DNA of 64,000 nucleotides from an uncultured virus (IMG/VR IMGVR_UViG_3300038318_000272) (IMGVR_UViG_3300038318_000272:1-64000); one strand, 5' to 3'. Positions 10,928-42,232 are shown, counted from the stretch's first letter. The notes: generated from the letters alone by a model not told the origin. Numbers and translations: made by a program.

Positions 10928-10928
10928 C

Positions 10929-11093: not shown

Positions 11094-11220
11094 ACACTCT
11101 TATCCTTCTACACCTATATAACGTCTTCTTCCTTACAGTATCCTTTGTACTTACAAATTCCTAGTGACCTGTTCTCAAGTAGCACAGTAAAGTATATATA
11201 TGCACACAGCGAACTCATGA

Positions 11221-11354
11221 GCAGACACAACGAATACACTGCGAACATATGACGTACTGTGTATGCGTCTGAGAAAGGTCAGTTAACACAAAATCCTTTA
11301 GACGGATATTTTTTTCAAAGATTAACGGGGGAGTATATATTAATAGACTGACGG
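11221..11354. other. intergenic module copy 1 (CAGAC/GTCTG hairpin, T-run, GGGG-TATA-CTGACGG box)
   Basis: Same order of parts as copies at 15575, 18107, 19279, 20529, 21911, 22631, 23444. Confidence 0.65.
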
Positions 11355-11372
11355 CGAGAGCCCGAAGGACTC

Positions 11373-11750: not shown

Positions 11751-11751
11751 C

Positions 11752-12165: not shown

Positions 12166-12522
12166 TGTTTCACGTTCCTTTTTAAATTGTTTAGATTAAG
12201 ATGTTTTTGTCGAACAGCCCGTAGGCTATCACATTCATTCTCTTGTCCGAGTGATAAGGGCAATGCTTCATCGAATGATTCTCGTTCCCGACCATCATCA
12301 AATGACAGGCATCATCGCAATCCTCGCCTTTGCACACGGTTATCTCCAATGTATCACGGCATCCTCCACCGCTGACACCTCTTATATACTCTGTCGGAGA
12401 GAACCATTTACCTTTAAGGTTCCCTTCAAAGATACCGTCCCAGTCCTCTGGGTAAGGTATCACAGCCTCTCTCAGCCCGTCCTCCTCCGCCTGCAACTCT
12501 TCTAGCGTGTATCTTCTCTCGC

Positions 12523-13182
12523 TCACTGTACCACCCCGAATATCTCCTGCTTCTCGAAGAGGTAAGGCTCTCCCTCCTGCACTACTGCACAGGCTATCGC
12601 CTTGCGTACTTTGCACGCTATCTCCTTTATCGAATAGTTGTTGGAGATGATTTCATCCTTCAGTGCGAAATTCATCAACTCTCCCTTTAAATCCTCGTAT
12701 GTGTAAAGTAGGGGGTGACTTATGCCCTCATCCACGTACAGTCTTCCGTTCTTGATTCTCCCCTCAGCCAGACGAATCAGAGTCTTCATGTCGGGGAACT
12801 CTGTGCTGACCATGACATCACGGTAGAACCTTCTCATACCCCTCACGCTCATCTCCTCTCCAGCGAATATCGGATGGATGGTTATGTTGAACCCCAGTCC
12901 CTCGGACTTTCCGTCCACGGCAAGGTCGTCCACGATGCCCGACACCGCCCCACGAACCCACATCTCGAAATGTGAATCGTAGACACCATCCTCCTTTCTG
13001 AGTTTCACGAACAACGCTGACTGAGCATCCTCGAATGCCTTGATTGTTATTGCTCTCAGAGAGTCGTTGCCGAGTATACTCTCCGTCATGTCTCTCGGAA
13101 GGGCCTTAAGGTCATTGCTCATGAGTCTCCAACTTATAGGGATGCCACAGACCTCCCTGTTGAGATACACCACGTTCGTCAT
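12523..13182 (-). CDS. hypothetical protein
   Basis: 219-aa ORF, GGAGG RBS. Confidence 0.65.
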   Translation of the reverse strand: MTNVVYLNREVCGIPISWRLMSNDLKALPRDMTESILGNDSLRAITIKAFEDAQSALFVKLRKEDGVYDSHFEMWVRGAVSGIVDDLAVDGKSEGLGFNITIHPIFAGEEMSVRGMRRFYRDVMVSTEFPDMKTLIRLAEGRIKNGRLYVDEGISHPLLYTYEDLKGELMNFALKDEIISNNYSIKEIACKVRKAIACAVVQEGEPYLFEKQEIFGVVQ

Positions 13183-13183
13183 T

Positions 13184-13522
13184 TCAGTCCTCCTTCACGA
13201 AATCGACCTCGAAGTCCCCGTCATCGAACTCGCACTCATCCACGATGTAATCATAGATGTCCTCGGCAAGGCTCTCCAGGAAGTACTCGAACTCCTCTCT
13301 GTACCTTACAGGGTCTACTGCTTCCAGCGTCTCGCTGACCTCATAGAATCCCCCGAAGACATCCACCGTCTTGCCCGTGTTCAGATAGTCATCGAACGCC
13401 TCGCACACGTCCGAAAGGAACACGCCGTTGAACAGTTCCCTTAAGTCGTTCGCATGGTTGACATCCATCACATGAGACACGTTGCCCGTGCCCCTCATCT
13501 TGCTTGTTATTCTTACTTTCAT
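13184..13522 (-). CDS. acidic paralogue family member 1
   Basis: AFDDYLN..VDVFGGFYEVSETLEAVDPVRYREEF shared with 13584, 17569, 19508, 20709. Confidence 0.75.
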   Translation of the reverse strand: MKVRITSKMRGTGNVSHVMDVNHANDLRELFNGVFLSDVCEAFDDYLNTGKTVDVFGGFYEVSETLEAVDPVRYREEFEYFLESLAEDIYDYIVDECEFDDGDFEVDFVKED

Positions 13523-13537
13523 TTTATTTTCCTCCTT

Positions 13538-13582
13538 GGGTTTTTCTCCCTATGACCATATAGGTCATAAGAATATTTAACC
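13538..13582 (-). promoter_or_regulatory. representative TATA promoter with 5'-terminal GGGAGAAAAACCC hairpin; GGAGG RBS immediately downstream
   Basis: TTAAATA about 23 nt before hairpin; same design at 14407, 15040, 15427, 16759, 17519, 17921, 19132, 19859, 20358, 21755. Confidence 0.75.
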
Positions 13583-13583
13583 T

Positions 13584-13919
13584 TTACTCATCCTCCCTCT
13601 CAAGGCGCAGTCCTGCTATCTTCTTCCAGGAATACTCCTGTAAGGAATCCCACGCCTTCTTCAGCTTCTCGTTCATGAACTCCTCGAACATCCAATCATA
13701 CCGTTCCTTATCGTACATGAACAGTACATCCGCTGAAGGATGCTCTTCATCAAGAACGACAGACCTGTACTCTTTATTGAGATGTGCGTCAAACGCATCG
13801 CCCATATCAACTGTGTAGTCATGCTTCATCAGAAACAGGAATTCATCCAGATTCTTCACTTGATAGGTCTGCTTCCCTTCATACCTCGATTCCACGCTGA
13901 ATCTTATCTTCTTTTTCAT
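13584..13919 (-). CDS. acidic paralogue family member 2
   Basis: Start MKKKIRF (ATGA overlap with upstream stop); AFDAHLN..SADVLFMYDKERYDWMF. Confidence 0.7.
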   Translation of the reverse strand: MKKKIRFSVESRYEGKQTYQVKNLDEFLFLMKHDYTVDMGDAFDAHLNKEYRSVVLDEEHPSADVLFMYDKERYDWMFEEFMNEKLKKAWDSLQEYSWKKIAGLRLEREDE

Positions 13920-14386
13920 GTCTCTTCCTCCGTCTCTTCCTCCGCCTCTCTTATGTCGAATCCGTCTATCGCATCCGACCAGCCCTTCTCTTCCAGGTCG
14001 ACCCAGATTATATCTTCGATATCCCGCCTCCAATCTTTGTAGAGTTCGTAGATGCTATCCATCATCTCTGTCATGAACACATTCCAGATATCGTCGTTGA
14101 AGTCCGAATCCTCTATAATATCCTCTACGGAGTTCAGTCCTGTTCCCAGATGGAATATCTTTTCGGTCTCGTCATTCTCGTTCGACACCTTCACGACATA
14201 GCGTGTGTCTATCACAGTGACGTCCAAGATTCTCTCAATCTCTTGAAAGAAGGATGTTCCGTTGGCACCATCATAGGCCTCAATCAGATTCCATACATCA
14301 TCCCCAGTCCTGTCCCAGATGTCGAGAGCATAGATTTCTCCCGTCTCAACCTCTTCGTATCTTATGTGTAGCAGTTGTTCTTTCAT
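13916..14386 (-). CDS. highly acidic hypothetical protein
   Basis: Very D/E-rich; own promoter and RBS. Confidence 0.7.
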   Translation of the reverse strand: MKEQLLHIRYEEVETGEIYALDIWDRTGDDVWNLIEAYDGANGTSFFQEIERILDVTVIDTRYVVKVSNENDETEKIFHLGTGLNSVEDIIEDSDFNDDIWNVFMTEMMDSIYELYKDWRRDIEDIIWVDLEEKGWSDAIDGFDIREAEEETEEET

Positions 14387-14457
14387 TTTTTATGTTCCTC
14401 CTGTTCGGGTTTTTCTCCCTATACTTACATAGGTTAGGGAGTATATATACCCTTCGT

Positions 14458-14769
14458 TCAGTCCTTCACCAGGCATATCCACAACTCTCCCATGTTGTGA
14501 AAGCCCGTCCCCTCCAGGTCATCGTAGACCTCTGTCATCTTCTTCTCCAGCCAGTTAGAGTATGCCTCTCCCGTTGTGTATTCTTCAGGGTCTTCCGTGA
14601 AATTCCCGTTGAACAAATCCTTTGCGAATTCCCAGATGAGTATCGCATCGTACTCTTTCCCCAGCCAATACCTGAACTCATCATAGTCCATTGTCAGTAT
14701 GTATGCGTGTTTGAATTCCGAGTTCATACTGACCACTATCTTCATCCTCTCCTTCTTGTTTATGTTCAT
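14458..14769 (-). CDS. acidic hypothetical protein (possible distant paralogue)
   Basis: Start MNINKK after AGGAG; C-terminus resembles the family. Confidence 0.6.
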   Translation of the reverse strand: MNINKKERMKIVVSMNSEFKHAYILTMDYDEFRYWLGKEYDAILIWEFAKDLFNGNFTEDPEEYTTGEAYSNWLEKKMTEVYDDLEGTGFHNMGELWICLVKD

Positions 14770-15023
14770 CTCCTTCCCTCCCACTGCTTCTTCCATTCCT
14801 CTCCAAAGTTCACATAGATTGCATCTCCGTACATACCCTTTGCGTCATACAGCCATGCAACCCTGTCAACATCGGGGTCATCATCGTGAACATATCCCCT
14901 ATACATCCCGTCGGCTATGACCAACGCCTCTTCCATATCATCAGCCATGATGATGTCCTTCGTTCTGTCATCATCTCCGTTCTCGACGTTGAAATCCGCC
15001 GTTATCATTACTATGTGTGCCAT
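14766..15023 (-). CDS. small acidic protein
   Basis: Own promoter, hairpin and RBS. Confidence 0.65.
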   Translation of the reverse strand: MAHIVMITADFNVENGDDDRTKDIIMADDMEEALVIADGMYRGYVHDDDPDVDRVAWLYDAKGMYGDAIYVNFGEEWKKQWEGRR

Positions 15024-15078
15024 TTTGTTTTTCCTCCTTGCGATTTTCCTCGCTACAACTACATAGACGTAGTAGTAT

Positions 15079-15414
15079 TTAACCCTTTATCTCCGAGCCT
15101 ATCACGTAGTTCAGATATCCAATGCATACTATACCGCCCAGCAATACATCTATCGGTCTGTCGTCATCGTCTATATTGAAGGTAGCTCTCAGCCCTCCAA
15201 AGTTAACAGACATGAAGAAAGCATCATCAGCCCATCCGCACATCAAAAGGAGACCCCCGTCTCCCTTCTGAATGTGCATACGCCTCTCTTCCTTCTTGTA
15301 ATCCCCGTGCAACCATGCCTCTATCTCCAGCCATTCGTCTTGAGATATGTCAGCGATGCTGTTGACATTAACAGTCATTAATCCGTTCTCTGTATTCAGT
15401 TCTATTTTTTTCAT
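15079..15414 (-). CDS. hypothetical protein
   Basis: Own promoter, hairpin and GAGGAGG RBS. Confidence 0.65.
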   Translation of the reverse strand: MKKIELNTENGLMTVNVNSIADISQDEWLEIEAWLHGDYKKEERRMHIQKGDGGLLLMCGWADDAFFMSVNFGGLRATFNIDDDDRPIDVLLGGIVCIGYLNYVIGSEIKG

Positions 15415-15478
15415 TGTGTTCCTCCTCGGCTTTTCTCGCCGAATCTACATAGGCGTAGGTCTATTTAATACCTTCGTC

Positions 15479-15565
15479 TACTCAATACCGAGTAAGTAGT
15501 CTACCGAGATAGTAGTAACAATAATAGTAGTAACTAAGAATTGAGTACCTACCTAATAGATAGTA
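15479..15565. promoter_or_regulatory. array of five WACY-N8-RGTW operator-like sites
   Basis: TACTcaataccgAGTA, TACCgagatagtAGTA, AACAataatagtAGTA (one mismatch), AACTaagaattgAGTA, TACCtaatagatAGTA. Confidence 0.7.
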
Positions 15566-15574
15566 GAGTAGGCA

Positions 15575-15701
15575 TACCAGACGAGTGATGGTTATCACTC
15601 GGCTGTTTGGGGTGTAGGGGACTGTGGGTTGGCTTGATATTCAGTTTATCACGGATTTTTTTGCTGTTCAACCAGGGGGATATATTCAGATGCTCTGACG
15701 G
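15575..15701. repeat. intergenic module copy 2 (family A)
   Basis: CCAGAC-hairpin-CTGTTTGGGGTGTAGGGGACTGTGGG (15603-15628), T-run, CTGACGG. Confidence 0.85.
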
Positions 15702-15933
15702 TGAAGGGGTTTGGGGTGGTTGGTATCATACCCACACCACCACCCTATCGAACCCTGCCTCGAAGTCGTCGTATCACTCATCGTCTTTTTCAAAACATGG
15801 ACAATATGTATCTTCGTACATATCGAAAGGCATGTTAGGGTCATCATCCTTTTGACAACAGAACATATCTCCATCGTCGTAAGCCACACTGTCCGCATAC
15901 TTGCATGTGTTGCATTGTTCTTCAGTCATTGCT

Positions 15934-16233
15934 TCACCTCTCCTCAATTATTAAATCGTCCATCATATCGTCGGTTAGCAGACGCGCGTGAAAGTCCTCA
16001 TCGTCAGTAAGGTAGGTTATGATGTAGTCGCCAACCATCCAATAGGTGCACGGCTTGTTATATTCACCATGCACACCATTATAGTATCGCCAAGCATCCT
16101 CAGCGTTAATCATTACATACCTAAGGTAGTGTTTTGATTCGTCAAGGGTGTAGTAGGGTTGTACATCCCACGCTAGGTGACCGTCCGTCGGTATACTGTC
16201 AATCACGTTGCTCATTTCCTTGAGTGTCGCCAT
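15934..16233 (-). CDS. hypothetical protein, paralogue of 27169-27465 and 26607-26918
   Basis: MATLKEM...CTYWMVGDYIITYLTDD...MMDDLIIE shared. Confidence 0.75.
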   Translation of the reverse strand: MATLKEMSNVIDSIPTDGHLAWDVQPYYTLDESKHYLRYVMINAEDAWRYYNGVHGEYNKPCTYWMVGDYIITYLTDDEDFHARLLTDDMMDDLIIEER

Positions 16234-16236
16234 TTT

Positions 16237-16482
16237 TCACTCCCCTATAAGAGATATAGACCCGACCATAACCCCGTCTCTCCTAATCTGTGCGAAACAC
16301 CCCAAAAAATCTATATCATCCGCATACATAATAAGTCTCCCTATATGAATGCTGTATTTCCAATATCTGCGGTGAACCCTGATTATGACAACGTCTCCAA
16401 TGGCTACGCTCTCTCCGTCCCCATCTATGAAGGCTTGAATCTTTTTGGTGTTGTTTGCTATTATTTCCTCGGTTGTTGCCAT
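16237..16482 (-). CDS. hypothetical protein, paralogue of 26922-27167
   Basis: MATTEEIIANN vs METTKAIIAKN; YADDI/YVDEI. Confidence 0.7.
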   Translation of the reverse strand: MATTEEIIANNTKKIQAFIDGDGESVAIGDVVIIRVHRRYWKYSIHIGRLIMYADDIDFLGCFAQIRRDGVMVGSISLIGE

Positions 16483-16511
16483 TTTCTTTATCTCCTATAT
16501 TTTTAAGATGT

Positions 16512-16742
16512 TTAGATGCGTGCAAGCCCCTCAGATGTGTATTCGAACTTGTACGTCCTTCCGCCTACAAACGCCTTCACATAAGCGTTTCTGGCGATTC
16601 CATCTGTAGCCGCAAGTCTTTCTATCTCGGATACGATGGCGTTCTTAGCGTCCTTGGTCAGCTTGCGGTCATCAGTGGTAACCCCAGACACACCCGCTAC
16701 ATCCTCTCCCCATCTTCCCCAAAACTCGATTGTTGCTATCAT
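16512..16742 (-). CDS. hypothetical protein
   Basis: Start MIATIEF after GGAGG RBS and promoter. Confidence 0.6.
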   Translation of the reverse strand: MIATIEFWGRWGEDVAGVSGVTTDDRKLTKDAKNAIVSEIERLAATDGIARNAYVKAFVGGRTYKFEYTSEGLARI

Positions 16743-16809
16743 TTTGTTTTCCTCCTTTGGGTTTTTCTCCCCTAGCACTACATAGCACTAGGGGTTTTTA
16801 ACCCTTTGC

Positions 16810-17496
16810 CTAAGCGTAGCCCAGCCTCATCCTCCAGGCCTCTGCCTCTTCTCTCTTCGGGTACGCCTTACCAATCCCAGAGTAGTCCGCACTGGCTTCA
16901 TGCCCGAAATACTCCCTTGCCAGCATCAGCCTCTGAATCTCACTGAACACGATATAGTCCAGTACGAATTCGGGTATCCCCTCATTATCCAGCACCGTGT
17001 TGATGGCTATGACCTTCATCATCATTGACATGGTGGACATATGGTTGGGCTTCTTGTCCATCCAGACCAGCTTCAGCACCGAATCCTCGTTGACCAGACC
17101 CATGCCCTTCAGCCTTTCAACCGAATCGTTCAGATTGCGAACCGTTCCTATGCCGTCCTTCGCATACGTTCTATGCCTCTTTATGAAAGAAAGCTGGTTC
17201 TCCTGTGCGAATTCGTCCGATAGGATGTATTCTTTCATTTCGTCCGAGTAGCCAGCATCCTGACCACTTATCTTCTTGAACATGGTGTGAGCCAAGTCCT
17301 CCAGTACCTGCCTCGGCGCATACTTGAGATAGTCTGACACCTGGAACTCCGCCCATGAATTAGTCCTTTGCCAGCGAACCTTGAAATCGCTGAACGCCCC
17401 AAAGCTCGCCCTGACTGTGTTGTATTCGTAATCCTCGCCTACTTTGCTGAACACATCCATAACGTATTCGTCATTGTTCTTTGCCTTTCTTGCCAT
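16810..17496 (-). CDS. YgjP/DUF45 (M48/SprT-like zincin) homologue lacking HExxH
   Basis: VSDYLKYAPRQVLEDLA and IPEFVLDYIVFSEIQR where YHELxH is expected. Confidence 0.6.
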   Translation of the reverse strand: MARKAKNNDEYVMDVFSKVGEDYEYNTVRASFGAFSDFKVRWQRTNSWAEFQVSDYLKYAPRQVLEDLAHTMFKKISGQDAGYSDEMKEYILSDEFAQENQLSFIKRHRTYAKDGIGTVRNLNDSVERLKGMGLVNEDSVLKLVWMDKKPNHMSTMSMMMKVIAINTVLDNEGIPEFVLDYIVFSEIQRLMLAREYFGHEASADYSGIGKAYPKREEAEAWRMRLGYA

Positions 17497-17568
17497 GTTC
17501 TTTTTTCCTCCTTTTTGTGGGGTTTTCTCCCTGCATCTACATAGACGAGGGAGTATATAACCCTTTGC

Positions 17569-17901
17569 TTATTCGTCCTCCTCTTCGTACACCTCTATCT
17601 TGGTGATTGTCAGATTTCCCATGTAATAAGGTTCTCCTCCTTCAAGAGTTGATTCTATGTCCTGGCTAAGACTGTCCAGATTGTCCAAGAGTCCGCATCT
17701 GAACGCTGTCGGGTCTATCTCTTCAAATGCCCTACTGGATGAATATGTGTATCCGCATATCTCCACGTCGCCATAGGCATCGTCCAGCATAGCCCGATAT
17801 TCTTCCAGGGCTTCCTCTTCAAACTCTGAATCCATAGCCTCTATCAGACCATCGAAGTCTTCAAAGAGGTAGACTTTTCCACCTGTTGTTACCATTATCA
17901 T
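17569..17901 (-). CDS. acidic paralogue family member 3
   Basis: MLDDAYGDVEICGYTYSSSRAFEEIDPTAFRCG. Confidence 0.75.
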   Translation of the reverse strand: MIMVTTGGKVYLFEDFDGLIEAMDSEFEEEALEEYRAMLDDAYGDVEICGYTYSSSRAFEEIDPTAFRCGLLDNLDSLSQDIESTLEGGEPYYMGNLTITKIEVYEEEDE

Positions 17902-18106
17902 TTTTCATATCCTCCTGTTTGCGACTTTTTCGTCGCTATACCTACATGTTCGTAGGTGTATATAATACCTTTCATCCTACGCAATACCGATATTCCTAAG
18001 AGAATACCGAGTACCTACTCTATTCCGAGTACCTATTCATTCTTAAGTCGGTATCTAAAGTATATCTACTGATTTTTGAGTAACCGAGAAACCCGTTGCA
18101 AAATTG

Positions 18107-18247
18107 GACTGCTCCGAATGTGAAACCTATTGGGTTTCACATGAGGACGACTGCGCCACTCAGGCTTTGCTGGTTGGGGGGGTAAATCAGAAACGCATAC
18201 TTTTTTTCAATGAAATCACGGGGGACTATATATGAATAGCCTGACGG
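18107..18247. repeat. intergenic module copy 3 (family B)
   Basis: GCTCCGA-hairpin then 37 bp (18152-18188) identical to 19317-19353, T-run, CTGACGG. Confidence 0.85.
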
Positions 18248-18377
18248 AAAATCTACCAGAATTTGCGTAGGTACTGGTTAAGGGGTGGATGGGGTGAGTG
18301 AGGGCGGTCAGCGCAAAAGCCCACGCCTGACCTAATCGCCCATCCATGAGAAAGGATAAGGAGTTTAGGGGCGGGTT

Positions 18378-18698
18378 TCAGACGATGCCGATAAACCTCC
18401 TGTTGCCGTCCACGCCGTCTATCTCTAAGCGGAAGTCCCGTATCCTCGCACAATAGCTGTGCTCGCCTATCTCGGACAGCATCGTGTTGATAGCGTCCCT
18501 GTCGCTCGCCGAATATGCGCCCTTGCCAATGCTGAATGTCTTAGCGTCATACTTGAAAATGTCAACGCCGTAATGACTCAATTCGAACGAGCCATCCCTG
18601 TCATCATAGAATCCTAGGTATGAGCCTTTGCGAACATACGCTCTCGGTTTCTTGATTGCTTTCTTATGCAGTTCCTTTACGATTCCTATGCTTTTCAT
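18378..18698 (-). CDS. hypothetical protein
   Basis: GGAGG RBS and TTTATAC promoter. Confidence 0.65.
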   Translation of the reverse strand: MKSIGIVKELHKKAIKKPRAYVRKGSYLGFYDDRDGSFELSHYGVDIFKYDAKTFSIGKGAYSASDRDAINTMLSEIGEHSYCARIRDFRLEIDGVDGNRRFIGIV

Positions 18699-18755
18699 TT
18701 TTGTTCCTCCATACCTACATACACCGAGGTGTATAAAGGGTTTTCGGAAAGGGGT

Positions 18756-19112
18756 TTATTCGCCCTCCATTATCGCCATGGCGTAGGTTCTCATGATGGG
18801 CCTGGCCAGCCCGTCCGATGGTCTTATCTCAGCCAGTCCAGCCAGTTTGAACAATTCCCAATAGTCATATTCGTCAAATGCTCTCTCGAATGTGTCCATG
18901 GTCGGTTTCTTTCCGAACGTGTTTAGAAAGTCCCGATAGCACCACTCAACCGCTGTTGCAATGATATCGCCCGACAGTTTCAATTTCCAGCCAGCACCAT
19001 ATTTCTCATGATACTTGACGGACAGTTCGGATATCGAAGTTTCGTTAACTCTCTCTGCTATCTTCAGTACATCCTTTTTCGTTGTCTTGAACAACGCTAT
19101 ATTTTCCGACAT
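18756..19112 (-). CDS. hypothetical protein
   Basis: GGAGGT RBS, hairpin and TATA upstream. Confidence 0.65.
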   Translation of the reverse strand: MSENIALFKTTKKDVLKIAERVNETSISELSVKYHEKYGAGWKLKLSGDIIATAVEWCYRDFLNTFGKKPTMDTFERAFDEYDYWELFKLAGLAEIRPSDGLARPIMRTYAMAIMEGE

Positions 19113-19207
19113 TTTCTTTTACCTCCTTCTTTCGGGGTTTTCCCCGACATGATTAGTTAAGGCACGATAGTATATATATCTTTGCCTAAAGTCAAACGAC
19201 AATGCCC

Positions 19208-19270
19208 GACCAATTTTCGAGTAGCATCCAACCAATTTTCGAGTAGCATCCAACCAATTTTCGAGTAGCA
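19208..19270. repeat. 22-bp tandem repeat x~2.8, each unit carrying one operator-like site
   Basis: ACCAATTTTCGAGTAGCATCCA repeated. Confidence 0.9.
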
Positions 19271-19278
19271 GAATAAGT

Positions 19279-19419
19279 GGTGCTCCGAACACAAGACACA
19301 GAATGGTCTTGTGTTGTGCGCCACTCAGGCTTTGCTGGTTGGGGGGGTAAATCCAAGACTCAAACACAGGAATATTTTTTTCCTATGTTCTCAGGCCCAT
19401 ATGTTTAATAGCCTGACGG
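19279..19419. repeat. intergenic module copy 4 (family B)
   Basis: AACACAAGAC/GTCTTGTGTT stem, shared 37-mer, T-run, CTGACGG. Confidence 0.85.
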
Positions 19420-19507
19420 AAAATTGAGCCTCACTCAGCCTTATGAACGGGCCTGAGTGAGTAAAAGGTTTGGAGGTATGTTTCTTTCATCCTAAGACTG
19501 ATTCACT

Positions 19508-19837
19508 TCAGTCGTCCACATACAGAGTCATTCCGCCTATCCTGTATTCGTTGCCCCTCTCCAGCTCAGCCCGTGCATCAGCCAGCTCTGCATCCCAGTA
19601 CTCTAAGAACGCTGTCCTGTACAAGGTTTCGTCTACTGCCTTGAGTGCTTCGCTGGTTGCATAGTGGTGTCCGAAGATTACCGCATCCTCTAAGTCGTCC
19701 AGGTACTCGTCGAATACCTCCTCCAGGACATGCTCGTAATATGCGAACAGCTCATCGTCCAAGTCAGCTATCTCTTCTATTTCGATTATTCCGTTTTTGA
19801 TGTACTTGTTGTCAAATTCAGCTCTTATGTTTATCAT
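19508..19837 (-). CDS. acidic paralogue family member 4
   Basis: VFDEYLDDLEDAVIFGHHYATSEALKAVDETLYRTAF. Confidence 0.75.
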   Translation of the reverse strand: MINIRAEFDNKYIKNGIIEIEEIADLDDELFAYYEHVLEEVFDEYLDDLEDAVIFGHHYATSEALKAVDETLYRTAFLEYWDAELADARAELERGNEYRIGGMTLYVDD

Positions 19838-19933
19838 GTTCCTTTTTCCTCCTTTTGTGGGGTTTTCTCCATGTTTCCTTAAGTCGTAATTACATATAAA
19901 GGTTTGTATAAGGGGTTTGGTTAAAGAGTTTGT

Positions 19934-20350
19934 TCAGTCCCCGTTTACCCTGGACTTTATTTCAACAGTCATGGGATTTAATTTCCCAAATTCCTTTTTC
20001 CCATACTCATTTCCATGAAGGAATTCTAGGGCCTTCTTCTTACTGTCTTCTAGCTCTTTAACTTCTTCAGACGTGGCACGGTCGTTATACTCGAGATTCT
20101 CAACAAACTTAGTAGCACCTTCTATGGTCCACATTACATTATTTAAAACTGAGATTTGAACCTGGAACGTCCCGCAAGTGATATCCGTGCACATCGGCGT
20201 TTTGTTCTGGCCCGATGACATCATTTGATTTTCCCCACATTCTGGAACGTCTTTAAGACGCTCATAGGTTTCAACGCTCTTTACTTTGTCCAGTGGTCTG
20301 GTCCCCTCGAACGTATATACGTGTCTGTATGTTTTTGTCATTTTTTTCAT
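19934..20350 (-). CDS. hypothetical protein
   Basis: Start MKKMTK after promoter and hairpin. Confidence 0.6.
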   Translation of the reverse strand: MKKMTKTYRHVYTFEGTRPLDKVKSVETYERLKDVPECGENQMMSSGQNKTPMCTDITCGTFQVQISVLNNVMWTIEGATKFVENLEYNDRATSEEVKELEDSKKKALEFLHGNEYGKKEFGKLNPMTVEIKSRVNGD

Positions 20351-20413
20351 CTCCGTATCGGGTTTCTCCCCGACAATACCCCCTACGCCGTAGTAGTATT
20401 TAATACCTTCGCC

Positions 20414-20520
20414 TACTAAAGAATCCGTAGCCAACTCAATATATGGTTACTACTCAATATATGGTTACTATAAATTTGGTATACAAACCAACCAAAAATT
20501 GAGTAACCGATTTTTAAGTA
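20414..20520. promoter_or_regulatory. array of six operator-like sites including an 18-bp tandem duplication
   Basis: e.g. TACTataaatttGGTA, AACCaaaaattgAGTA, AACCgatttttaAGTA. Confidence 0.7.
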
Positions 20521-20528
20521 GCAATGCT

Positions 20529-20663
20529 TACCAGACGATTGTGAAGTATTCGCAATCGGCTGTTTGGGGTGTAGGGGACTGTGGGAGGTTATTGTTCTCT
20601 TAAGTATTCAGCCAAAATATTTTCTCTGTTTTCCCAGGGGACTTATATTCTATGCACTGACGC
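20529..20663. repeat. intergenic module copy 5 (family A)
   Basis: 26-mer at 20560-20585. Confidence 0.85.
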
Positions 20664-20708
20664 TCGGCTACAAAAAAAGAGAAGAGGAAGGGCTTTCGCC
20701 CCTCGGTT

Positions 20709-21080
20709 TCAACCCTCTATTTCCTCCCAAAGGGTTATCGGGGTGGGCTCACCGTATTCGTTGCTCCCTATCGTGTACTCGTCCCCGTTGTTCAGATTCG
20801 ATATCAGGCACTCTATCTCCGATTTACACCACGCCTCGAACTCGGAATCGTATGCCTCTCTATCCACCATATAGAGGGCATGAGCTGGATTGTATATCTT
20901 ATGTGACCCAATCTGCCCCACTGATACGAGGTTAAACCACGCCTCGAACAAGTCGTCCAGCATTCCTTTGAATTCCTCAATCAGCTTACAGTACAGTTCG
21001 TTGTAGTATTTGACCTCAACAACCCACGTGACTGACCCCGCCTCTACATCGGGTACAAATCTTGCTCTTATTGTCTTCAT
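20709..21080 (-). CDS. acidic paralogue family member 5
   Basis: IYNPAHALYMVDREAYDSEF...GDEYTIG. Confidence 0.7.
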   Translation of the reverse strand: MKTIRARFVPDVEAGSVTWVVEVKYYNELYCKLIEEFKGMLDDLFEAWFNLVSVGQIGSHKIYNPAHALYMVDREAYDSEFEAWCKSEIECLISNLNNGDEYTIGSNEYGEPTPITLWEEIEG

Positions 21081-21095
21081 TTCAATTCCTCCTTA

Positions 21096-21124
21096 GTGGG
21101 GGGATACGGCTCCCCCCGAGCCTC
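21096..21124. repeat. 29-bp intergenic GC-rich element identical to 23044-23072
   Basis: GTGGGGGGATACGGCTCCCCCCGAGCCTC in both. Confidence 0.9.
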
Positions 21125-21128
21125 ATTC

Positions 21129-21503
21129 TTAAGCCCCCCATTCCCTCCGCCCAGGGACGGTTTGCCAGGTGTCGCTCTCATCCCTGACCGCAATCACAGT
21201 CGCCGTCATGAATTTTGTTTCCACAACGTCGCCGACATCGCACAGCCAGCCCTCGAACTCATCGGCTATCTCTTCCGCCATCGCCTCTATGTGCCTGCGC
21301 AGACCCGATACGTCATGATATCCCGTATCGCTCTCGTACGGGATACGCCCGTGCACTTCCTCGTCGTACTCTACTTCCATGAACGTGTCAATCAGACGCT
21401 CGTACCACTTGTCCAGCAGGTAAGCCTTCATCTCGTCCACATTCACGCCTCTGTCAAAGACCAGCTCTTCCGAGTAGTCCTCTGCCTCTATCTTTATTTT
21501 CAT
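21129..21503 (-). CDS. acidic hypothetical protein
   Basis: GGAGG RBS; D/E-rich. Confidence 0.65.
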   Translation of the reverse strand: MKIKIEAEDYSEELVFDRGVNVDEMKAYLLDKWYERLIDTFMEVEYDEEVHGRIPYESDTGYHDVSGLRRHIEAMAEEIADEFEGWLCDVGDVVETKFMTATVIAVRDESDTWQTVPGRREWGA

Positions 21504-21536
21504 TTCTTTTCCTCCTTGATTGGGGGGAATCCCCCC

Positions 21537-21740
21537 TTAGGGTGTGTCCTCATATATGTCCCTCTCGACATACACCTGAGTCATTAAGTCCTGATTGTCC
21601 ATCACAATGCACCTGAATCCTCCATCAGCCATGTTGCAAGCACATTCCCCAGCTTCCTCTCCAGTCTTGAACCACTGGGTGATTATGTTGTTCACGTTGC
21701 GTGGGCTTATAGCCACAACCGAATATCTCATGTTGCTCAT
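21537..21740 (-). CDS. small hypothetical protein
   Basis: GGAGGT RBS, promoter and hairpin upstream. Confidence 0.55.
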   Translation of the reverse strand: MSNMRYSVVAISPRNVNNIITQWFKTGEEAGECACNMADGGFRCIVMDNQDLMTQVYVERDIYEDTP

Positions 21741-21910
21741 ATCCAATACCTCCGTCGGGATTTACCCGATGTAACCCCATCGGCACGGTAGTATATATAT
21801 CTATGCACAAAATTGAACCTCAATTCAACCAAAGAATAAGTAGGTTTTCAGACCTACCAAAGAATAGGTAGCATAGACCTACTCATTTCTTGGTAGCACA
21901 ATCTCTCTTC

Positions 21911-22044
21911 TTACCAGACGGCTGAGATTACATCTCAGCCTTCTGTTTGGGGTGTAGGGGACTGTGGGAGGTTAGTGGTTCATTACATCTGACGAAAATA
22001 TTTTTCATGTTCTTGCGGGGGATATATGTTCTATATGCTGACGG
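21911..22044. repeat. intergenic module copy 6 (family A)
   Basis: 26-mer at 21943-21968; three operator-like sites at 21827-21895. Confidence 0.85.
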
Positions 22045-22121
22045 TCGGCCTAAGCCGACCATCTTGGCCTTTGACCCGACTAGTGGGGTGAGGGGGTATA
22101 GCCCCCCTCTTGCTCTCACTC

Positions 22122-22469
22122 CTAGGCCTTGTATGGGATTCTCAGAGACCCAATCTCCACACGGTCATCAATCCTGATGCTGTCTGCCTTGCCATGGACG
22201 GCTATCCCTCCCATTTCGAAGGTCAACAGGCAGTACCTGAACCTACCGCCCCCCTCTGTTCTTAAGGACAGGGGGTAGCCGTGGATGTGGACATCCCCCG
22301 TCTTGACCAGTTCGCTGATTGTGAGCCAGTCGTTGCGAGACAGGTTAGAGATGTCATAGTCCACAGGGGTTATCACGGTCTCGAACATGGGTGTGTGGTC
22401 GCTTAGAACATTGAGATTCAGAGCGACACGCTGTACGCCTTCCGACATATTGTGTGTGTTCATTTTCAC
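22122..22469 (-). CDS. hypothetical protein
   Basis: Own promoter; loosely similar to 15079-15414 and 23648-24016 (IS..xWL.I.E pattern). Confidence 0.55.
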   Translation of the reverse strand: MKMNTHNMSEGVQRVALNLNVLSDHTPMFETVITPVDYDISNLSRNDWLTISELVKTGDVHIHGYPLSLRTEGGGRFRYCLLTFEMGGIAVHGKADSIRIDDRVEIGSLRIPYKA

Positions 22470-22630
22470 AACTCCTGCCGATTTGGTTGGTTTGATTCCC
22501 TTCCGATTCGGCTAAGACCCCCTACGAGGTGGTAGTATATATATCTACGCTCAAAATCGACACACAATCTAACCAGAATTTAAGTAGGTAAACAGACCTA
22601 CCAGAATTTGAGTAGGTGAATTCCTACGTC

Positions 22631-22767
22631 TTACCAGACGGTTAGGGATTATCCTCAACCGTCTGTTTGGGGTGTAGGGGACTGTGGGAGGTTATTGTTC
22701 CTGGATTAGACTCCGCCAAAATGTTTTTTCTGCTTTGACACGGGACTATATTCTGATGTGCGGACGG
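22631..22767. repeat. intergenic module copy 7 (family A)
   Basis: 26-mer at 22663-22688; operator-like sites at 22571-22614. Confidence 0.85.
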
Positions 22768-22792
22768 TCGAGGGGCCGAAGCCCCTCTGAGT

Positions 22793-23026
22793 TTAGTCTA
22801 TGCGCCTCCATCCACTGGGGCACTCGCCCGCACTGTGTCCGCAACACGGGTAATCCTCACACCCGCTTGACCAGACATATCCGTCCGTGCTCTCGAACTT
22901 ATCACAGACTCTGCGCCCCTGAATGACCTCATCCATGAACCCGCTGTTCTTCCTCTTCAGGCATCCGAGTGACCTCGGCCTCTCCTCTGCGTGGATGCAT
23001 CCCAGGCAGTTGTTCCATTTTCCCAT
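22793..23026 (-). CDS. small Cys-rich protein
   Basis: CLGCIH..C..C..GCEDYPCCGH; GGAGGT RBS. Confidence 0.6.
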   Translation of the reverse strand: MGKWNNCLGCIHAEERPRSLGCLKRKNSGFMDEVIQGRRVCDKFESTDGYVWSSGCEDYPCCGHSAGECPSGWRRID

Positions 23027-23074
23027 ATCTTACACCTCCGTGTGTGGGGGGATACGGCTCCCCCCGAGCCTCGT

Positions 23075-23311
23075 TCACAGCACCATCTGACAGAACGCTC
23101 CATGGTTACCCTTAGAGCCCATGTCTGTCTTTGCCCACATCTCTTCGGTGTATGCTATACAGAAACGACCGAACCCGTCCCTTGCCAGCCCGAATATGCG
23201 AGCGTGGACATCGCAAGCGTCTTCATAGGAATCAGCACTTATCTGAGTCCACCCTCCGCTGAAGGGGTGGCTCTTGCTGGTTCCGTATGTAAAGAAGAAC
23301 ACCTGTTTCAT
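23075..23311 (-). CDS. small hypothetical protein
   Basis: FFFTYG..HPF.GGW pattern; GGAGGTGA RBS. Confidence 0.6.
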   Translation of the reverse strand: MKQVFFFTYGTSKSHPFSGGWTQISADSYEDACDVHARIFGLARDGFGRFCIAYTEEMWAKTDMGSKGNHGAFCQMVL

Positions 23312-23443
23312 TTTTCATTTCACCTCCTGCCTCATGGCAATACCCAAGAAATCGTGTGAGTATATATATCTGTCGTCAAAATCGACACCAATCGCTACCA
23401 CATTCATGGTAGGACACGACTGCTACCAACAAACAGGTAGGTT

Positions 23444-23600
23444 GGACTGCTCCACGAAAGAACTCAACACATCGTGTTGGGTTCCAGTTGGAGCTACCTG
23501 CGACGCTATGGCATTGATGGCTGAGCGGGCTTTACAGAACTCAAACCGCACTGTTTTTTTTCCTAATTCCTTACGGGGTTGTATATCTATATGCTGACGG
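23444..23600. other. intergenic module copy 8 (family B-like)
   Basis: GCTCCA/TGGAGC and GAACTCAACAC/GTGTTGGGTTC stems, T-run, CTGACGG; operator-like sites at 23396-23439. Confidence 0.7.
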
Positions 23601-23647
23601 TCGGCTTTCGCCGACCTGGGTTTAAGGGGGGCTTTCGCCCCTCTCGT

Positions 23648-24016
23648 TTAGGCCCCCCCGATATCCAGTTGGCCGATAAAGTGCCTTCCGATACCAACCA
23701 GCACGATTCTGTCATTGTGAATGCCCAGCGGAGAACCCTTGTCAGCATCCCAGACAGACGAGTTGTAAACGCCCCCCCTCTGACTGAATGATGCAACGAG
23801 GTATCTCTTCCCGTACTTATCACGGTTCACGCTGAAACTCACGGTTGATGCGTCCCCCGCCTTTATGGTTGCGTTTGTTCTGTTCCAACCGCTGGCATCT
23901 GAAAGGCGTTTTTCTAAATCTTTCCACTGGGAAAGCGTTACGTCCTCGAATCTCTCGCACTGGATAAACAGCCAGCATCCTGCTTCGGATATCTCTATCC
24001 CGTTTTGTATTTCCAT
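23648..24016 (-). CDS. hypothetical protein
   Basis: GGAGG RBS. Confidence 0.6.
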   Translation of the reverse strand: MEIQNGIEISEAGCWLFIQCERFEDVTLSQWKDLEKRLSDASGWNRTNATIKAGDASTVSFSVNRDKYGKRYLVASFSQRGGVYNSSVWDADKGSPLGIHNDRIVLVGIGRHFIGQLDIGGA

Positions 24017-24064
24017 GTCTTTTTCCTCCTTTGCGTGTAAGAAGAAGGGCCGAAGCCCTTCGGT

Positions 24065-24424
24065 TTAGGCGTGCCCCCCCAGCACGTAAATCGTTGCAAT
24101 GCCCTTAAGGCACGGCAGGCGACATTCGTCAAAGTAACTGTCGCCTATCTCCAGAGGGTTAGTTGACCACTGGTCGGTGTAGCGGTCGATGGCCTTAGCC
24201 ATCCATATGTCCAAGGGCTCACGTGCCTGGGCCTTCTTCGTCGTGTGTGTGGCCAGGTACTCAGCGGTCATGGGCCTCCAAAGCTCACGAGAGGCGAGGA
24301 TGCCCTTCAGGAGCATGTCCTCATCCTCAAAGTATAGTGCCTTATATCCGAGGCATTCGTTCATGGGCTGGCTGGTAAACCCGTATCGGGTGTACTTTTG
24401 CATATTCTGCATTGCTGTGTTCAT
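24065..24424 (-). CDS. hypothetical protein
   Basis: TTATATAC promoter, hairpin, GGAG RBS. Confidence 0.6.
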   Translation of the reverse strand: MNTAMQNMQKYTRYGFTSQPMNECLGYKALYFEDEDMLLKGILASRELWRPMTAEYLATHTTKKAQAREPLDIWMAKAIDRYTDQWSTNPLEIGDSYFDECRLPCLKGIATIYVLGGHA

Positions 24425-25098
24425 TTTCTTTCTCTCCTACCAGTCCCTTTCGACTGGGATGAATATGAGATTCGTTGGGGAGTATATAACGCTTTGCCGA
24501 AAATCGAGGCTGTTATCTACTAATTATTGGGTTGGATGAATGAAAAACCAAGAAACTGTTAGGTATAGGGTTGAGTTTGGGGCCCCCCTCATCGCACACA
24601 TTTTTTTCAACAAACAAAGGGGACTATATAGCGTTATTATCTCAGTTGATGAATTGACATAGTACAACGTACTACACCCTCCCTTAGAAGGAAACAGATA
24701 TACTATACAAGGTCAAATAGAAGGTCAATAAGAAGACGATAAAGGCAATAAGGAAAGTAGTAACTAAATGTGTATAATAGTAGCAACTAATCACTAGATT
24801 TCTACACGAACCCCCCGACATAGAGAGCAATCACGAGAATGACATTATTCGAAGTATGATTTGACACGGAAATGACGGTAGTAGAGGTGAAAGAGTGAGA
24901 GAAGGATGCGGATGCCGTGGCGCACACCTTTCTCACCCTTTGAGGGGGAGTGCATAGCGTCACGGGAGAGGCACAGTCCTACTCCTCTCAATTACCTATA
25001 GGCTTTGAGAGTATATATGCCTATCGAACTTACTCTAGATGTAGTAGATACTTATTGTATAGTAGATGTATTTGATTGTAAGATGAGGTGGGGGTTGT

Positions 25099-25813
25099 TT
25101 ACTCCCGCTCTATCCTTCTCTGTGCTAGGTTGTAGTAGTTCTCATCTAACTCTATACCTATGAAGTTCCTGTTCTCTCTCTTGCATACTACGCCTGTTGA
25201 CTCCGAGCCCATGAACGGGTCTAATACAGTATCTCCTTCATTAGATAAGAGAGTTATGAGTTGAGTGAGAAGATTCTCAGGTTTCTGTGTCGGGTGTGTT
25301 CCTTGTGCTCTTTCTCTCTTAGAAGCTACGGCGCAGTCTATATGGTCATGAATCGCCTTTCCGTTGTTGTTGAACGTTCCTGTTCTTTTGTCGTTCACAA
25401 AGTAAAGCCAAGGCTCTATAGATGATACGAAATGATATTTCATATTCCTCGGCATAGGATTCGTCTTATGCCAAATACCTGTCGTTTTGTAATAGAGAGA
25501 AGTGTTCTTAGCTAACGTTATGAGGTCGTTGATTCTAAATACGGATGTGAATACTATCGCCCCCCCCCCCTCTGCGCAGAACCCTCTGAGCCTGAGAGAG
25601 GAAGTCCGACATCAACACATCGAAGCTTTTGTTGTCGAACTCGTCCCATGAAGACTGAGCGAAGTGATTCGGACGCATTGTGTGAATGTTTGATTGTCTG
25701 TCTTTGCAGAAGTTCGCAATGTTGTAAGGAGGGTCTGTAAGGATTAAGTCTATCGAGTTGTCGGGGATTTGCATTAGAGCTTCTATACAATCTGCATTGA
25801 TTAAGTTAATCAT
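25099..25813 (-). pseudogene. beta-class N4-C/N6-A DNA methyltransferase frameshifted in a G11 tract (possibly phase-variable)
   Basis: DPPY in 5' half; HPTQKP and DPFMGSEST in 3' half; halves join in frame if the G run (C 25560-25570) is G10. Confidence 0.85.
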
Positions 25814-25904
25814 ACGAGAGAGATAGAATGAAAGTATATATGTGTATCTAAGATACTAAGGAAGGAATATCTGCCTAAGAGAGAGTATCTTGTATAGTAG
25901 ATTG

Positions 25905-26400: not shown

Positions 26401-26606
26401 TGTATTCTCTCAGTTGGGTATGTAAGAAAGAGTATATGTGGGGTTGTGAGAGGGAAAGTTCAGAGGTATAGCTGTCGACTGAGGGAGCTGTGAAACAATT
26501 CCCCAACTATACCTCCAAGGGGACTTACCCCTAATTATATGTATGTATTGTTTGTATATAAAGGTTTGCATAAAAGGTTAATGATAAAATGGCCCCGTGG
26601 GCCGTT

Positions 26607-26918: not shown

Positions 26919-26921
26919 TTT

Positions 26922-27167: not shown

Positions 27168-27168
27168 T

Positions 27169-27750: not shown

Positions 27751-27765
27751 GATTTAAAAAAAGGT

Positions 27766-41176: not shown

Positions 41177-42232
41177 TCATTCCACGGGTTTGAAATCTAT
41201 ATCACAAATTCCTGCTGAATTAATCGCACAAATCCTCTCACCATTGGGGAGTATAGGAGACTTCATCAGTTTGAATACACGCCTTCCTTTAGCTCCAACT
41301 CGGATGTAGATATGCACCTGAGCCGAGTGCCCCAGCACATATCCTCCGACAGGTCTTATCGGGTCTCCGAACATCAACCCAGGACTCTCCTGTACCTGAT
41401 TTGAAACAAGTACGACCGCCCCCCTCGCTTCCGCAAAAGATTGCAATTGAGAAAGATATGAGTTAAGCAACTGCTGTCTCTCTGCCAACGCACCCCTGCC
41501 GATATACTCTGCCCTGAAGTGAGATATGATGGAATCTACAATCAACAGTTTCACATTCTTCTCCACCCCAAGTTGCCGTATCTTATCCATCAGCACAATC
41601 TGATGTGCGCTGGTGTTCGCCCTGACTACATGGAGACGGGATGCAACCCCATCGAAATCAAAACCCCTCGCTTCCGCAATCTGCTTCACACGAGAGATTC
41701 TGAACGTACCTTCCGAATCGACATAAATCACATCTGTGTCCAACCCACCTTCTTCCTTGGGTCTGGTGGCCATTACAGATGCAGTCAGACACGCCTGCGT
41801 CTTTCCGCTTCCGTATCCGCCGTAAAGTTCAGTTATCCACCCAGTTGTATATCCGCCACCAATCAGATTGTCAATCTCTGGACTGCCTGTAGTGAGATAG
41901 GTGTATCTTCCTTCTTCGGCAACCAGCTCATTCCCGTTCTTAATCCTACCAACGTCCGACAAAGCTCTCGCTTGCTCTATGAGCTTACCAGCAGCAACCT
42001 TACCGAATCCTGTCTGCTCAACCAAATCCCCTATCGGGGCAACTGCAATATCCATGAGGCTCCTGTATCCCGCATTGAACAGAGCTTCTGCACGGGATTC
42101 TTTCACCCCCTTCAACTGCATGAATTCCTGAAGATAGACCATCCTATCCTCTTCACTCATTTTTTCGGTCGTCTTTCCTCTCGTTCCTGGGGAGTCATAC
42201 TCCTCCCCTTCTCCCTCATAACCTTCCGCCAT
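41177..42232 (-). CDS. radA: archaeal recombinase RadA
   Basis: N-terminal HhH, GGYGSGKTQ, YVDSEGTFR, LLIVDS, FRAEYIGRGALAERQQ, GGYVLGH. Confidence 0.95.
   Translation of the reverse strand: MAEGYEGEGEEYDSPGTRGKTTEKMSEEDRMVYLQEFMQLKGVKESRAEALFNAGYRSLMDIAVAPIGDLVEQTGFGKVAAGKLIEQARALSDVGRIKNGNELVAEEGRYTYLTTGSPEIDNLIGGGYTTGWITELYGGYGSGKTQACLTASVMATRPKEEGGLDTDVIYVDSEGTFRISRVKQIAEARGFDFDGVASRLHVVRANTSAHQIVLMDKIRQLGVEKNVKLLIVDSIISHFRAEYIGRGALAERQQLLNSYLSQLQSFAEARGAVVLVSNQVQESPGLMFGDPIRPVGGYVLGHSAQVHIYIRVGAKGRRVFKLMKSPILPNGERICAINSAGICDIDFKPVE

Follow-up and report, generated by a model that had tools for sequence, protein, structure and literature searches.

Two described systems come closest to the elements reported here. 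Class I repeats of HF2, an archaeal tailed virus, are described as promoters of 56-58 bp located between early and middle genes, with a TATA box flanked by conserved upstream and start-site motifs; some of them fire both ways, their position and orientation are kept in related viruses, and they are thought to be read by virus-encoded factors (PMC8707807). The PeSLs of T4-type phages are reported as cassettes of a promoter and a stem-loop that flank orphan genes in plastic genome regions, where insertions, deletions and replacements between close relatives end (PMC2839356, PMC4122927). Here, we analyse four intergenic elements, from now on referred to as family A, of an uncultured tailed virus (IMG/VR IMGVR_UViG_3300038318_000272), in which a hairpin of variable sequence is joined to an invariant 26-nt G-rich tract and which we tentatively read as candidate small RNA genes. 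The virus record is 68,842 nt long and rated complete; its first 64 kb (positions 1-64000) constitute the window.

Each family A copy is part of a cassette of ~190 nt, of which the original prediction had seen only part and which includes a promoter-like module, module P, read in the direction of the neighbouring genes. Similar to HF2 repeats, module P contains a TATA-like, AT-rich box that is flanked by conserved motifs at a fixed spacing, and the cassettes keep their position and orientation in related viruses. However, the promoter-like module is one part only of the cassette, and HF2 repeats, going by their published description, carry neither a covarying hairpin nor an invariant G/C tract. 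With PeSLs the elements have in common a stable stem-loop joined to a promoter-like module, flanking orphan genes and indel or replacement joints between close relatives, whereas PeSLs as portrayed in those reports carry sigma-70 consensus promoters, which the elements here do not, and lack both an invariant 26-30-nt tract and a second hairpin copying the first. Neither system combines a covarying hairpin, a tract identical across viruses and a matched second hairpin. A further likeness is found in the Vibrio Qrr small RNAs, which are encoded in several copies and consist of one perfectly conserved stretch of ~30 nt and varying stem-loops. Family A is likewise multi-copy with a constant stretch of ~30 nt and variable stem-loops; however, Qrr RNAs are bacterial, Hfq-dependent and chromosomal and have known targets, while family A is known from sequence alone.

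Conserved anatomy of the four copies

Perfect matches to the 26-mer CTGTTTGGGGTGTAGGGGACTGTGGG are located at 15603, 20560, 21943 and 22663, in each case on the plus strand, as the original prediction had stated. Allowing up to three mismatches still returns just these four copies (expected 0; 0 of 100 shuffles matched), the whole 68,842-nt record contains no fifth one, and a covariance model of hairpin plus tract detected no further copy in the window. Every copy is preceded by TACCAGAC (15575, 20529, 21912 and 22632), which has 7 matches in the window versus 1.85 expected. Between TACCAGAC and the tract lies a hairpin of 12-14 pairs, referred to as H1, with a constant CAG...CTG base and an upper part that differs in every copy. 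The stems quoted in the original prediction as differing in sequence yet always pairing were correct and extend to these 12-14 pairs closed by CAG/CTG; the stem at 22640 includes one internal A·C and one internal G·T. A T-run starts 27-35 nt past the tract, in agreement with the 25-35 nt noted before, and the span from TACCAGAC to the end of the T-run is 88-98 nt.

Unit 1 (15575..15662, plus strand, 88 nt) consists of TACCAGAC, H1 (15578-15605), the 26-mer (15603-15628), a degenerate second hairpin region and a T7 run (15656-15662). In unit 2 (20529..20633, plus strand), TACCAGAC, H1 (20532-20562) and the 26-mer (20560-20585) are followed by a repeat of the H1 apex, AAGTATTC, and by T4-CTCTG-T4, the first T4 being located at 20620-20623. 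Unit 3 (21912..22005, plus strand, 94 nt) has TACCAGAC, H1 at 21915-21945, the 26-mer at 21943-21968, the apex repeat ATTACATCT and a T5 run (22001-22005), and unit 4 (22632..22729, plus strand, 98 nt) has TACCAGAC, H1 at 22635-22665, the 26-mer at 22663-22688, the apex repeat GGATTA and a T6 run (22724-22729).

Selection on structure, suggested earlier from the four stems, is borne out by covariation and by compensatory changes in distant relatives. In an alignment of five distinct H1 copies, four from the window and one variant from a relative, 91% of 67 cells are paired, compared with 31-47% when the partner is slid. Both-sided changes are observed in 6 of 14 pairs, and the covariation score was reached by none of 500 shuffles.

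The segment 3' of the tract repeats the apex of H1 (AAGTATTC, ATTACATCT, GAGTGAATC, TTATCAC, GGATTA, TGAAGTA and GATTTGG). With contig L016 left out, as it equals copy 2, the longest word shared by apex and 3' segment within a copy measures 5-9 nt (mean 6.9, n=10), versus 3-6 nt (mean 4.4, n=80) between unrelated copies, where 0 of 80 reach 7. In distant relatives, the two hairpins have outer stem and loop in common. Judged by these repeats, the 3' segment appears to be a second hairpin matched to the first and decayed in this virus, rather than a free guide. A guide or target function was rejected: neither hairpins nor spacers have a 9-12-nt match in the virus genome above chance, and for hairpin, spacer and tract alike the virus contains no above-chance complementary site.

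A two-tier quadruplex had also been suggested. The G-runs of the tract (G4, G4, G3, G2) do permit one, but at most this, as four runs of G3 or longer are not present, and the tract is not special in this respect: its G4Hunter score is 1.84, yet 65 genome regions have an absolute G4Hunter score of at least 1.4. The only motif in the genome with four runs of G3 or longer is located at 26283 on the plus strand.

Cassette order and module P

The four copies are each located within a gap of 320-370 nt between small orphan genes on the minus strand, which have AGGAGG-type ribosome sites; the units are antisense to these flanking genes, as had been noted. Read in gene sense, each gap begins with the upstream stop codon, a GC hairpin with a UUCG/GAAA-type loop, module P and an A-run, continues with a variable segment of ~30 nt, the tract in its C-rich complement, the variable hairpin and TCTGGTAAG, and closes with direct and inverted repeats, a second TATA module as found before genes and a ribosome site. 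Module P is made up of CGTCAG, 15 nt ending in an ATATA box, and TCCCC. Its CGTCAG-to-TCCCC spacing is 21 nt (N15) in 10 of 11 copies and 20 nt (N14) in the remaining one. A TATA-plus-TCCC core and an upstream ..AGA are shared with the modules that front genes, in gene orientation and on both genome strands.

Copy 1 of module P spans 15663..15700 on the minus strand (CGTCAG-N15-TCCCC with the TATA-like ATATA, then the A-run); copies 2, 3 and 4, on the same strand, span 20634..20662, 22006..22043 and 22730..22766, with copy 4 being a CGTCCG variant. The gene-end hairpins upstream of them in gene sense, also on the minus strand, are found at 15712..15745 for copy 1, 20686..20705 for copy 2 (GAAA loop and T7 run), 22042..22061 for copy 3 (abutting CGTCAG) and 22769..22788 for copy 4 (UUCG loop).

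Module P heads five more gaps, at about 11350, 18250, 19420, 23600 and 24640, where it is followed by other families of a hairpin plus a conserved box. A sister unit of one such family (11193..11353, plus strand) has a perfect TATATATA (11193-11200) 21 nt ahead of a CAGAC-closed hairpin that starts at 11222, a T7 run 94 nt further on (11309-11315) and module P up to 11353. Two family B units, both on the plus strand, begin with TTGGACTGCTCC and a hairpin: the first (18104..18246) continues with a G-rich block and a T7 run (18201-18207), the second (23441..23599) has G·T pairs on the plus strand of its hairpin and a T8 run (23554-23561), and module P follows in both.

Two further repeats were observed in this region. 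The 26-mer AGGCTTTGCTGGTTGGGGGGGTAAAT is unchanged at 18162-18187 and 19327-19352 (plus strand), in both cases followed at 13-22 nt by a T7 run and module P; given the copy at 19327-19352, a weak GTG-started open reading frame (ORF) at 19119-19367 may instead be a non-coding unit. Between 13538 and 21804, a 48-nt repeat family with nine copies (e.g. 14407-14454 and 17519-17566) is located before gene starts. It consists of (A)AAGG and a TATA-like box, a variable-stem palindrome around the almost fixed CTATGTAG and a ribosome site, and as a class it has a constant centre and a variable stem, similar to the design of family A.

Relatives in metagenomes

A scan of JGI metagenomes with a 20-nt core of the tract yielded 13 matches in 12 contigs, namely six close mosaic relatives, three distant contigs (L011, L014 and L017) and three unrelated ones. 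In one close relative, the copy-3 cassette carries a wholly different hairpin. The distant contigs share with the window, by blastn, just a 30-nt identity, TGTTTGGGGTGTAGGGGACTGTGGGAGGTT, and nine translated frames of L014 (two of them mis-framed) gave no tblastn match in the virus; the 30 nt are conserved across viruses without detectable shared neighbouring genes. It should be noted that all distant copies except a variant in L014 were ascertained by the exact core, so that identity over the 20-mer is not independent, while the ten flanking identical bases are. The variant, a second copy in L014 (1032-1161) found otherwise than through the core, keeps only GGGGACTGTGGGAGG and the G-run pattern. 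By this comparison, the tract is not absolutely fixed, but its 3' half and its G-run rhythm are.

The order CGTCAG, ATAT-TCCCC, AAAAT/ATTTT, tract, hairpin, GTCTGGTA and TATA module, antisense to genes, is kept in the distant contigs, and all related copies (11 copies in 9 contigs) agree in order and in orientation to genes. Three hairpins are kept with compensatory changes in the distant contigs. There, the box of module P is enclosed in a hairpin of 13 bp that shows 3 compensatory changes, and the stretch before the tract forms a strong hairpin. RNAalifold predicts 48 pairs, 12 of them compensatory, at -34.9 kcal/mol for the G-rich strand of the distant relatives, compared with 39 pairs, 10 compensatory, at -29.8 kcal/mol for the C-rich strand. 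Directly past the tract, the G-rich strand of the three canonical distant copies has a hairpin of -13 to -15 kcal/mol plus TTTTGTTTT, with no counterpart on the opposite strand. A long-range helix between tract and CTGACG, also predicted by RNAalifold on the G-rich strand, was given no weight, as it lacks covariation and reaches beyond the T-run.

Two sites account for the unrelated contigs: L012, and L015/L019, which match a Gammaproteobacteria metagenome-assembled genome (MAG; L020). Only the 20-mer is shared, and both sites are probably chance matches. In L015/L019/L020, the core is found in an intergenic region of a MAG of 60% GC, where GAAACCTGGTC, a GC hairpin and four repeats of AGTACCC come after it; the CTGGT behind the core is reminiscent of TCTGGTA in the virus. 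Pattern scans of IMG/VR for relatives returned nothing or chance matches alone. The only terminase relative, an 83-kb record, does not contain the element, including by covariance model.

A tailed virus of a probable archaeal host

The virus encodes, among others, terminase, portal, capsid, NrdD and helicases. From 2.9 to 42 kb, the genes are on the minus strand and have strong ribosome sites of the AGGAGG type; the structural genes follow on the plus strand. Of the 24 small genes scanned between 15 and 27.5 kb, only those representing the two halves of a methylase have a Pfam family. Near-identical pieces of the region were found in digester, biogas, landfill, bioreactor and wastewater runs of at least nine studies.

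Based on its recombinase and on one of its tRNAs, the virus is probably an archaeal tailed virus with an archaeon as its host. The main evidence is a RadA-type recombinase gene outside the element (41177..42232, minus strand), whose product scores above the cutoff of the NCBIfam archaeal RadA equivalog NF003301 (338 vs 259 bits) and contains Pfam Rad51 (9e-64) and HHH_5 (HhH) domains; 12 of 12 homologues bearing an organism name are archaeal. The viral tRNA-Gln (1990-2062, plus strand) has A1-U72 as its first pair, which is reported for Methanothermobacter tRNA-Gln, whereas bacterial GatCAB reads U1-A72 (PMC2811023). Terminase homologues did not name a host, all matches being below 32% identity, and searches of cultured phages found no similar DNA. 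As the host is likely archaeal, signals were read by archaeal rules, i.e. promoters with a TATA box and B recognition element (TATA/BRE) and oligo-T terminators.

Some minor features of the tRNA-Gln gene are similar to parts of the cassette. On its 5' side (1960-2002, plus strand), 2.5 copies of TTATTTCTAAAC are present, the sequence formed by its first bases and the 5' flank (TATAGTCCCCTGG) shares a 13-nt match with the TATA-TCCCC core of module P, and its 3' acceptor strand GGGGACT is also found within the invariant tract. The likenesses to the module P core and to the tract are taken as chance.

Strand evidence and candidate small RNA genes

Wobble pairs are the sole strand-specific signal. 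In the minimum-energy folds of 14 element hairpins, G·U pairs number 13 on the G-rich strand versus 2 on the other, while in 8 gene-end hairpins the numbers are 2 versus 5 (G-rich-strand sense first), favouring the gene strand. This contrast has a Fisher p of 0.014, or 0.022 without the L017 hairpin, a near copy of that in L011, and lends statistical, if modest, support to the plus-strand wobbles noted in the original prediction. The G-rich strand is equally or more stable over the H1 region in 8 of 8 distinct hairpins (within 0.2 kcal/mol in four, by more than 2 kcal/mol in four).

Termination by archaeal RNA polymerase is reported for stretches of five to six T (PMC2253867) and for U-tracts (PMC8716108). 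Between 9 and 28 kb, 7 of the 12 plus-strand runs of at least six T close units of the kind described here, and four of the remaining five are complementary to gene starts of the form ATG-AAAAAA; on the gene-sense strand, this interval contains just 4 such runs. With T5-T7 in three copies and T4+T4 in one, the 3' end of family A could be an archaeal oligo-T terminator, which holds only if the host is archaeal.

The reading we favour, as a tentative one that falls somewhat short of probable, is that the four copies represent a family of small non-coding RNA genes of ~90 nt on the plus strand, standing face to face with module P. The RNA would start at or near TACCAGAC, about 20-30 nt past an AT-rich box, and would be read on the G-rich (plus) strand against the orphan genes. 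Its 5' end would fold into the variable CAGAC/GTCTG-closed hairpin and display the invariant G-rich tract single-stranded; a second hairpin with the same apex, strong in distant relatives and decayed here, would come next, and the RNA would end at the T5-T8 run, of the archaeal terminator type. Each unit would face module P, whose predicted start lies in the same A/T run. Because the two converge in this run, the RNA would be exactly antisense to the first ~90 nt of a leader driven by module P. A putative arrangement of this kind is similar to IS10 RNA-OUT/RNA-IN and P22 sar, where a short structured RNA is transcribed from a convergent promoter, antisense to a neighbouring 5' leader; however, such systems need no tract common to all copies. 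We infer production of RNA from these sequence features, and we hypothesize that the tract serves as a shared contact for one common partner, which may be a host or viral protein or RNA, with the hairpins merely protecting it and giving each copy its own identity.

In a bolder form, which we consider quite improbable, family A would be a modular non-coding device heading orphan-gene cassettes in tailed viruses that infect anaerobic archaea, with a constant 30-nt effector face and a copy-specific hairpin address, that is, a viral RNA family without CRISPR. The 30-nt identity would be explained if the tract engages one host component, for instance as a mimic of a ribosome-binding site through GGGAGGU or by binding a C-rich host RNA or a protein, and the two matched hairpins would constitute the private identity of each copy towards the convergent leader it overlaps. 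To our knowledge, hardly any regulatory signals have been described for archaeal viruses other than haloviruses, and the viruses of digester and landfill archaea are known from metagenomes alone. If family A is indeed transcribed as a family of RNAs, these would count among the first small RNAs to be proposed for the latter viruses, and the constant 30-nt tract could be used, as a probe or as a bait, to search for both the host and the partner molecule.

Several observations weigh against small RNA genes on the plus strand. No consistent promoter was found there, the centre of the AT-rich box varying from about -24 to -34 before TACCAGAC across the four copies. Module P resembles gene promoters in the gene direction and has its predicted start within the A-run, and the T-run may therefore be the initiator region of module P rather than a terminator. 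A T-run is missing from the variant copy in L014, and a hairpin-type terminator from the copies in the window. Folding z-scores of the whole element do not tell the strands apart. For both strands of the tract, duplex energies against the genome stay within the range of shuffled queries, leaving the virus without a target. Contigs from the only RNA-library run contain copy 4 whole, one contig spanning it with its neighbours, and copy 1 partly, another contig covering it from the tract onward with its first 259 nt unmatched here, but they are strandless and may be DNA carry-over; no weight is given to the stretches at copies 2 and 3 left uncovered in this run, its depth being too low. Finally, profile matches indicate that the virus encodes RusA and a Tad2-like domain, both commoner in bacterial phages, which counts against an archaeal host. 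Of the ~90-nt plus-strand unit originally proposed, the anatomy (88-98 nt) fits and the strand is backed by the G·U pairs, whereas module P gives a serious rival reading.

Under this rival, which is possible though rather unlikely, module P would be an archaeal promoter in the gene direction with its predicted start in the A-run, giving rise to a sense leader or a sense small RNA. The unpaired C-rich tract between two hairpins could then act as a cis signal for an elongation, termination or processing factor, comparable to nut/boxA and ops, or could form the body of a C-rich small RNA. In HF2, conserved intergenic repeats are described as proven promoters with conserved flanking motifs (PMC8707807). 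The rigid spacing of module P and its core in common with the modules fronting genes argue for this reading, as do the position of a start ~24 nt past the TATA-like box, which would lie within the conserved A-run, and the uniform orientation of all copies relative to genes in three unrelated gene contexts. In addition, intergenic sense sequence is generally C-rich here, and the tract is unpaired in every C-strand fold; in G-strand folds it has no conserved partner. Yet the wobble pairs oppose this strand (2 versus 13), no T-run or other terminator follows the hairpin on it, and a TATA-like box inside a 13-bp hairpin with 3 compensatory changes, as found in the distant relatives, would be unusual for a plain promoter. 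We also know of no precedent for an A7-8 run at a start site, which counts against a sense leader as well.

Cassettes as joints of exchangeable gene modules

Homology between the window and close relatives stops at 15700 (L008, L009), 22043 (L013 and run contigs), 20711|21132 (L010) and 19868|20351 (L016, L018), the first two positions being the ends of module P copies 1 and 3. Contig joints among those listed from three DNA runs and the RNA-library run are 15715>17503, 22043>23638, 22765>20690 and 20711>21132, and the tract is where some of the listed contig pieces begin or end. The breaks fall on CGTCAG and on gene starts and not within the tract. In L010/L013, the block of hairpin, tract and second hairpin is swapped as one piece in a background that is otherwise 84-88% identical. 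These homology breaks and joints indicate that the cassettes bound exchangeable gene modules. Even as promoter joints alone, they mark swaps of orphan genes and would help in reading mosaic metagenome assemblies, which break there. Three small genes are present as diverged paralogous sets at 15933-16265 and 26616-27497, 11 kb apart and with 70-78% DNA identity, so that cassettes seem to have been duplicated as well as exchanged.

A reading at the DNA level alone, with no dedicated RNA, is unlikely in our view. It takes the cassette as a promoter- and regulator-binding repeat that doubles as a homology linker for the exchange of orphan-gene cassettes, comparable to PeSLs or HF2 repeats, the invariant tract as a putative protein-binding site and the hairpins as DNA inverted repeats. 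The neighbouring small genes without a Pfam family, the mosaic relatives with homology breaks at cassette borders, the contig joints, the block swapped whole in L010/L013 and the promoter-like rigid spacing of module P are all consistent with it. However, a duplex site should be indifferent to which strand carries G·T, the breakpoints are located at CGTCAG and gene starts instead of the invariant tract, and perfect identity over 30 nt without shared neighbouring genes exceeds what a linker needs. The distances from the tract to the start of CGTCAG (65-88 nt) and to the gene promoter (about 55-125 nt) also make for poor activator geometry.

Other readings and rejected candidates

A small weight is left for some other explanation. 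A miniature mobile element or a solitary CRISPR-repeat mimic (RNA anti-CRISPR) is very improbable: although the elements are multi-copy, intergenic and common to otherwise unrelated viruses, carry a short GAC(G/A) word at both ends, and would owe their tract invariance to the need to match a host CRISPR repeat, they have no terminal inverted repeats (the ends TACCAGAC and CTGACG are not inverted copies), are always in one orientation and have no empty sites, relatives differing in genes and not in element presence, and the 20-mer core is in no array among 241 million metagenome records and 185,579 species genomes scanned, which contain it only as single or paired viral copies and at two unrelated single sites.

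Phage RNA-polymerase promoters were rejected because no RNA polymerase was found in the virus: Pfam and PHROGs were silent on the large ORFs, PDB sequence searches came back empty, and the motifs DxDGD, DxDxD and T7 motif C do not occur in a credible frame. Bacterial sigma-70 promoters are represented by 7 sites versus 11.4 expected in 15300-23700, none of them in the four cassettes. Bacterial hairpin terminators are below or near shuffle expectation; an intrinsic-terminator scan flagged H1 plus CTGTTT in one of the four copies, and the distant relatives have a good terminator of this type past the tract on the G-rich strand. A coding function was dismissed: the ORFs that begin within the tract on the plus strand are shadows, length differences between the hairpins are not divisible by three, and one frame with an ATG start is closed in the relative nearest to this virus. 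The tRNA-like and C/D-box candidates were rejected, as ARAGORN finds no tRNA in the elements and no box C was seen by eye. No match of the Rfam covariance models (9000-28000, E up to 10) overlaps the four 26-mer/hairpin units; only chance-level microRNA and snoRNA matches were obtained, including a sub-threshold microRNA match at 20433-20520 in the gap beside copy 2 (22 bits versus a gathering threshold of 97, E 1.5).

Further features of the genome

The methylase mentioned above, an N6/N4 DNA methylase (25099-25813, minus strand), is interrupted by a run of eleven G (on the plus strand, eleven C) that divides it into the frames 25535-25813 and 25099-25443; the split could reflect a frameshift, a phase-variable tract or an assembly error. 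Next to it, 25830-26420 (minus strand) is a gene-free stretch of 600 nt with CT/CA low-complexity sequence (CTCTCTC... and CACACAAC), and an 85-nt TATA-bearing repeat is present in two copies (24983-25067 and 26000-26084). The RusA resolvase is encoded at 1101-1547 (plus strand), the protein with the Tad2-like (Thoeris anti-defence) domain at 8966-9208 (minus strand) and an HNH/HTH protein with a weak intein-splicing match at 5772-6629 (minus strand). Two tandem tRNA-Leu genes (49435-49605, minus strand) are located on the strand opposite to the structural genes; adjoining them, a 231-nt tandem duplication (49723-50184, plus strand) is found inside an ORF at 49717-50661 with an InlB B-repeat-like domain. 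The genome ends with one ORF of 2,198 amino acids (62169-68765, plus strand), which extends past the window end and has tail-fibre-like matches in its first 610 residues.

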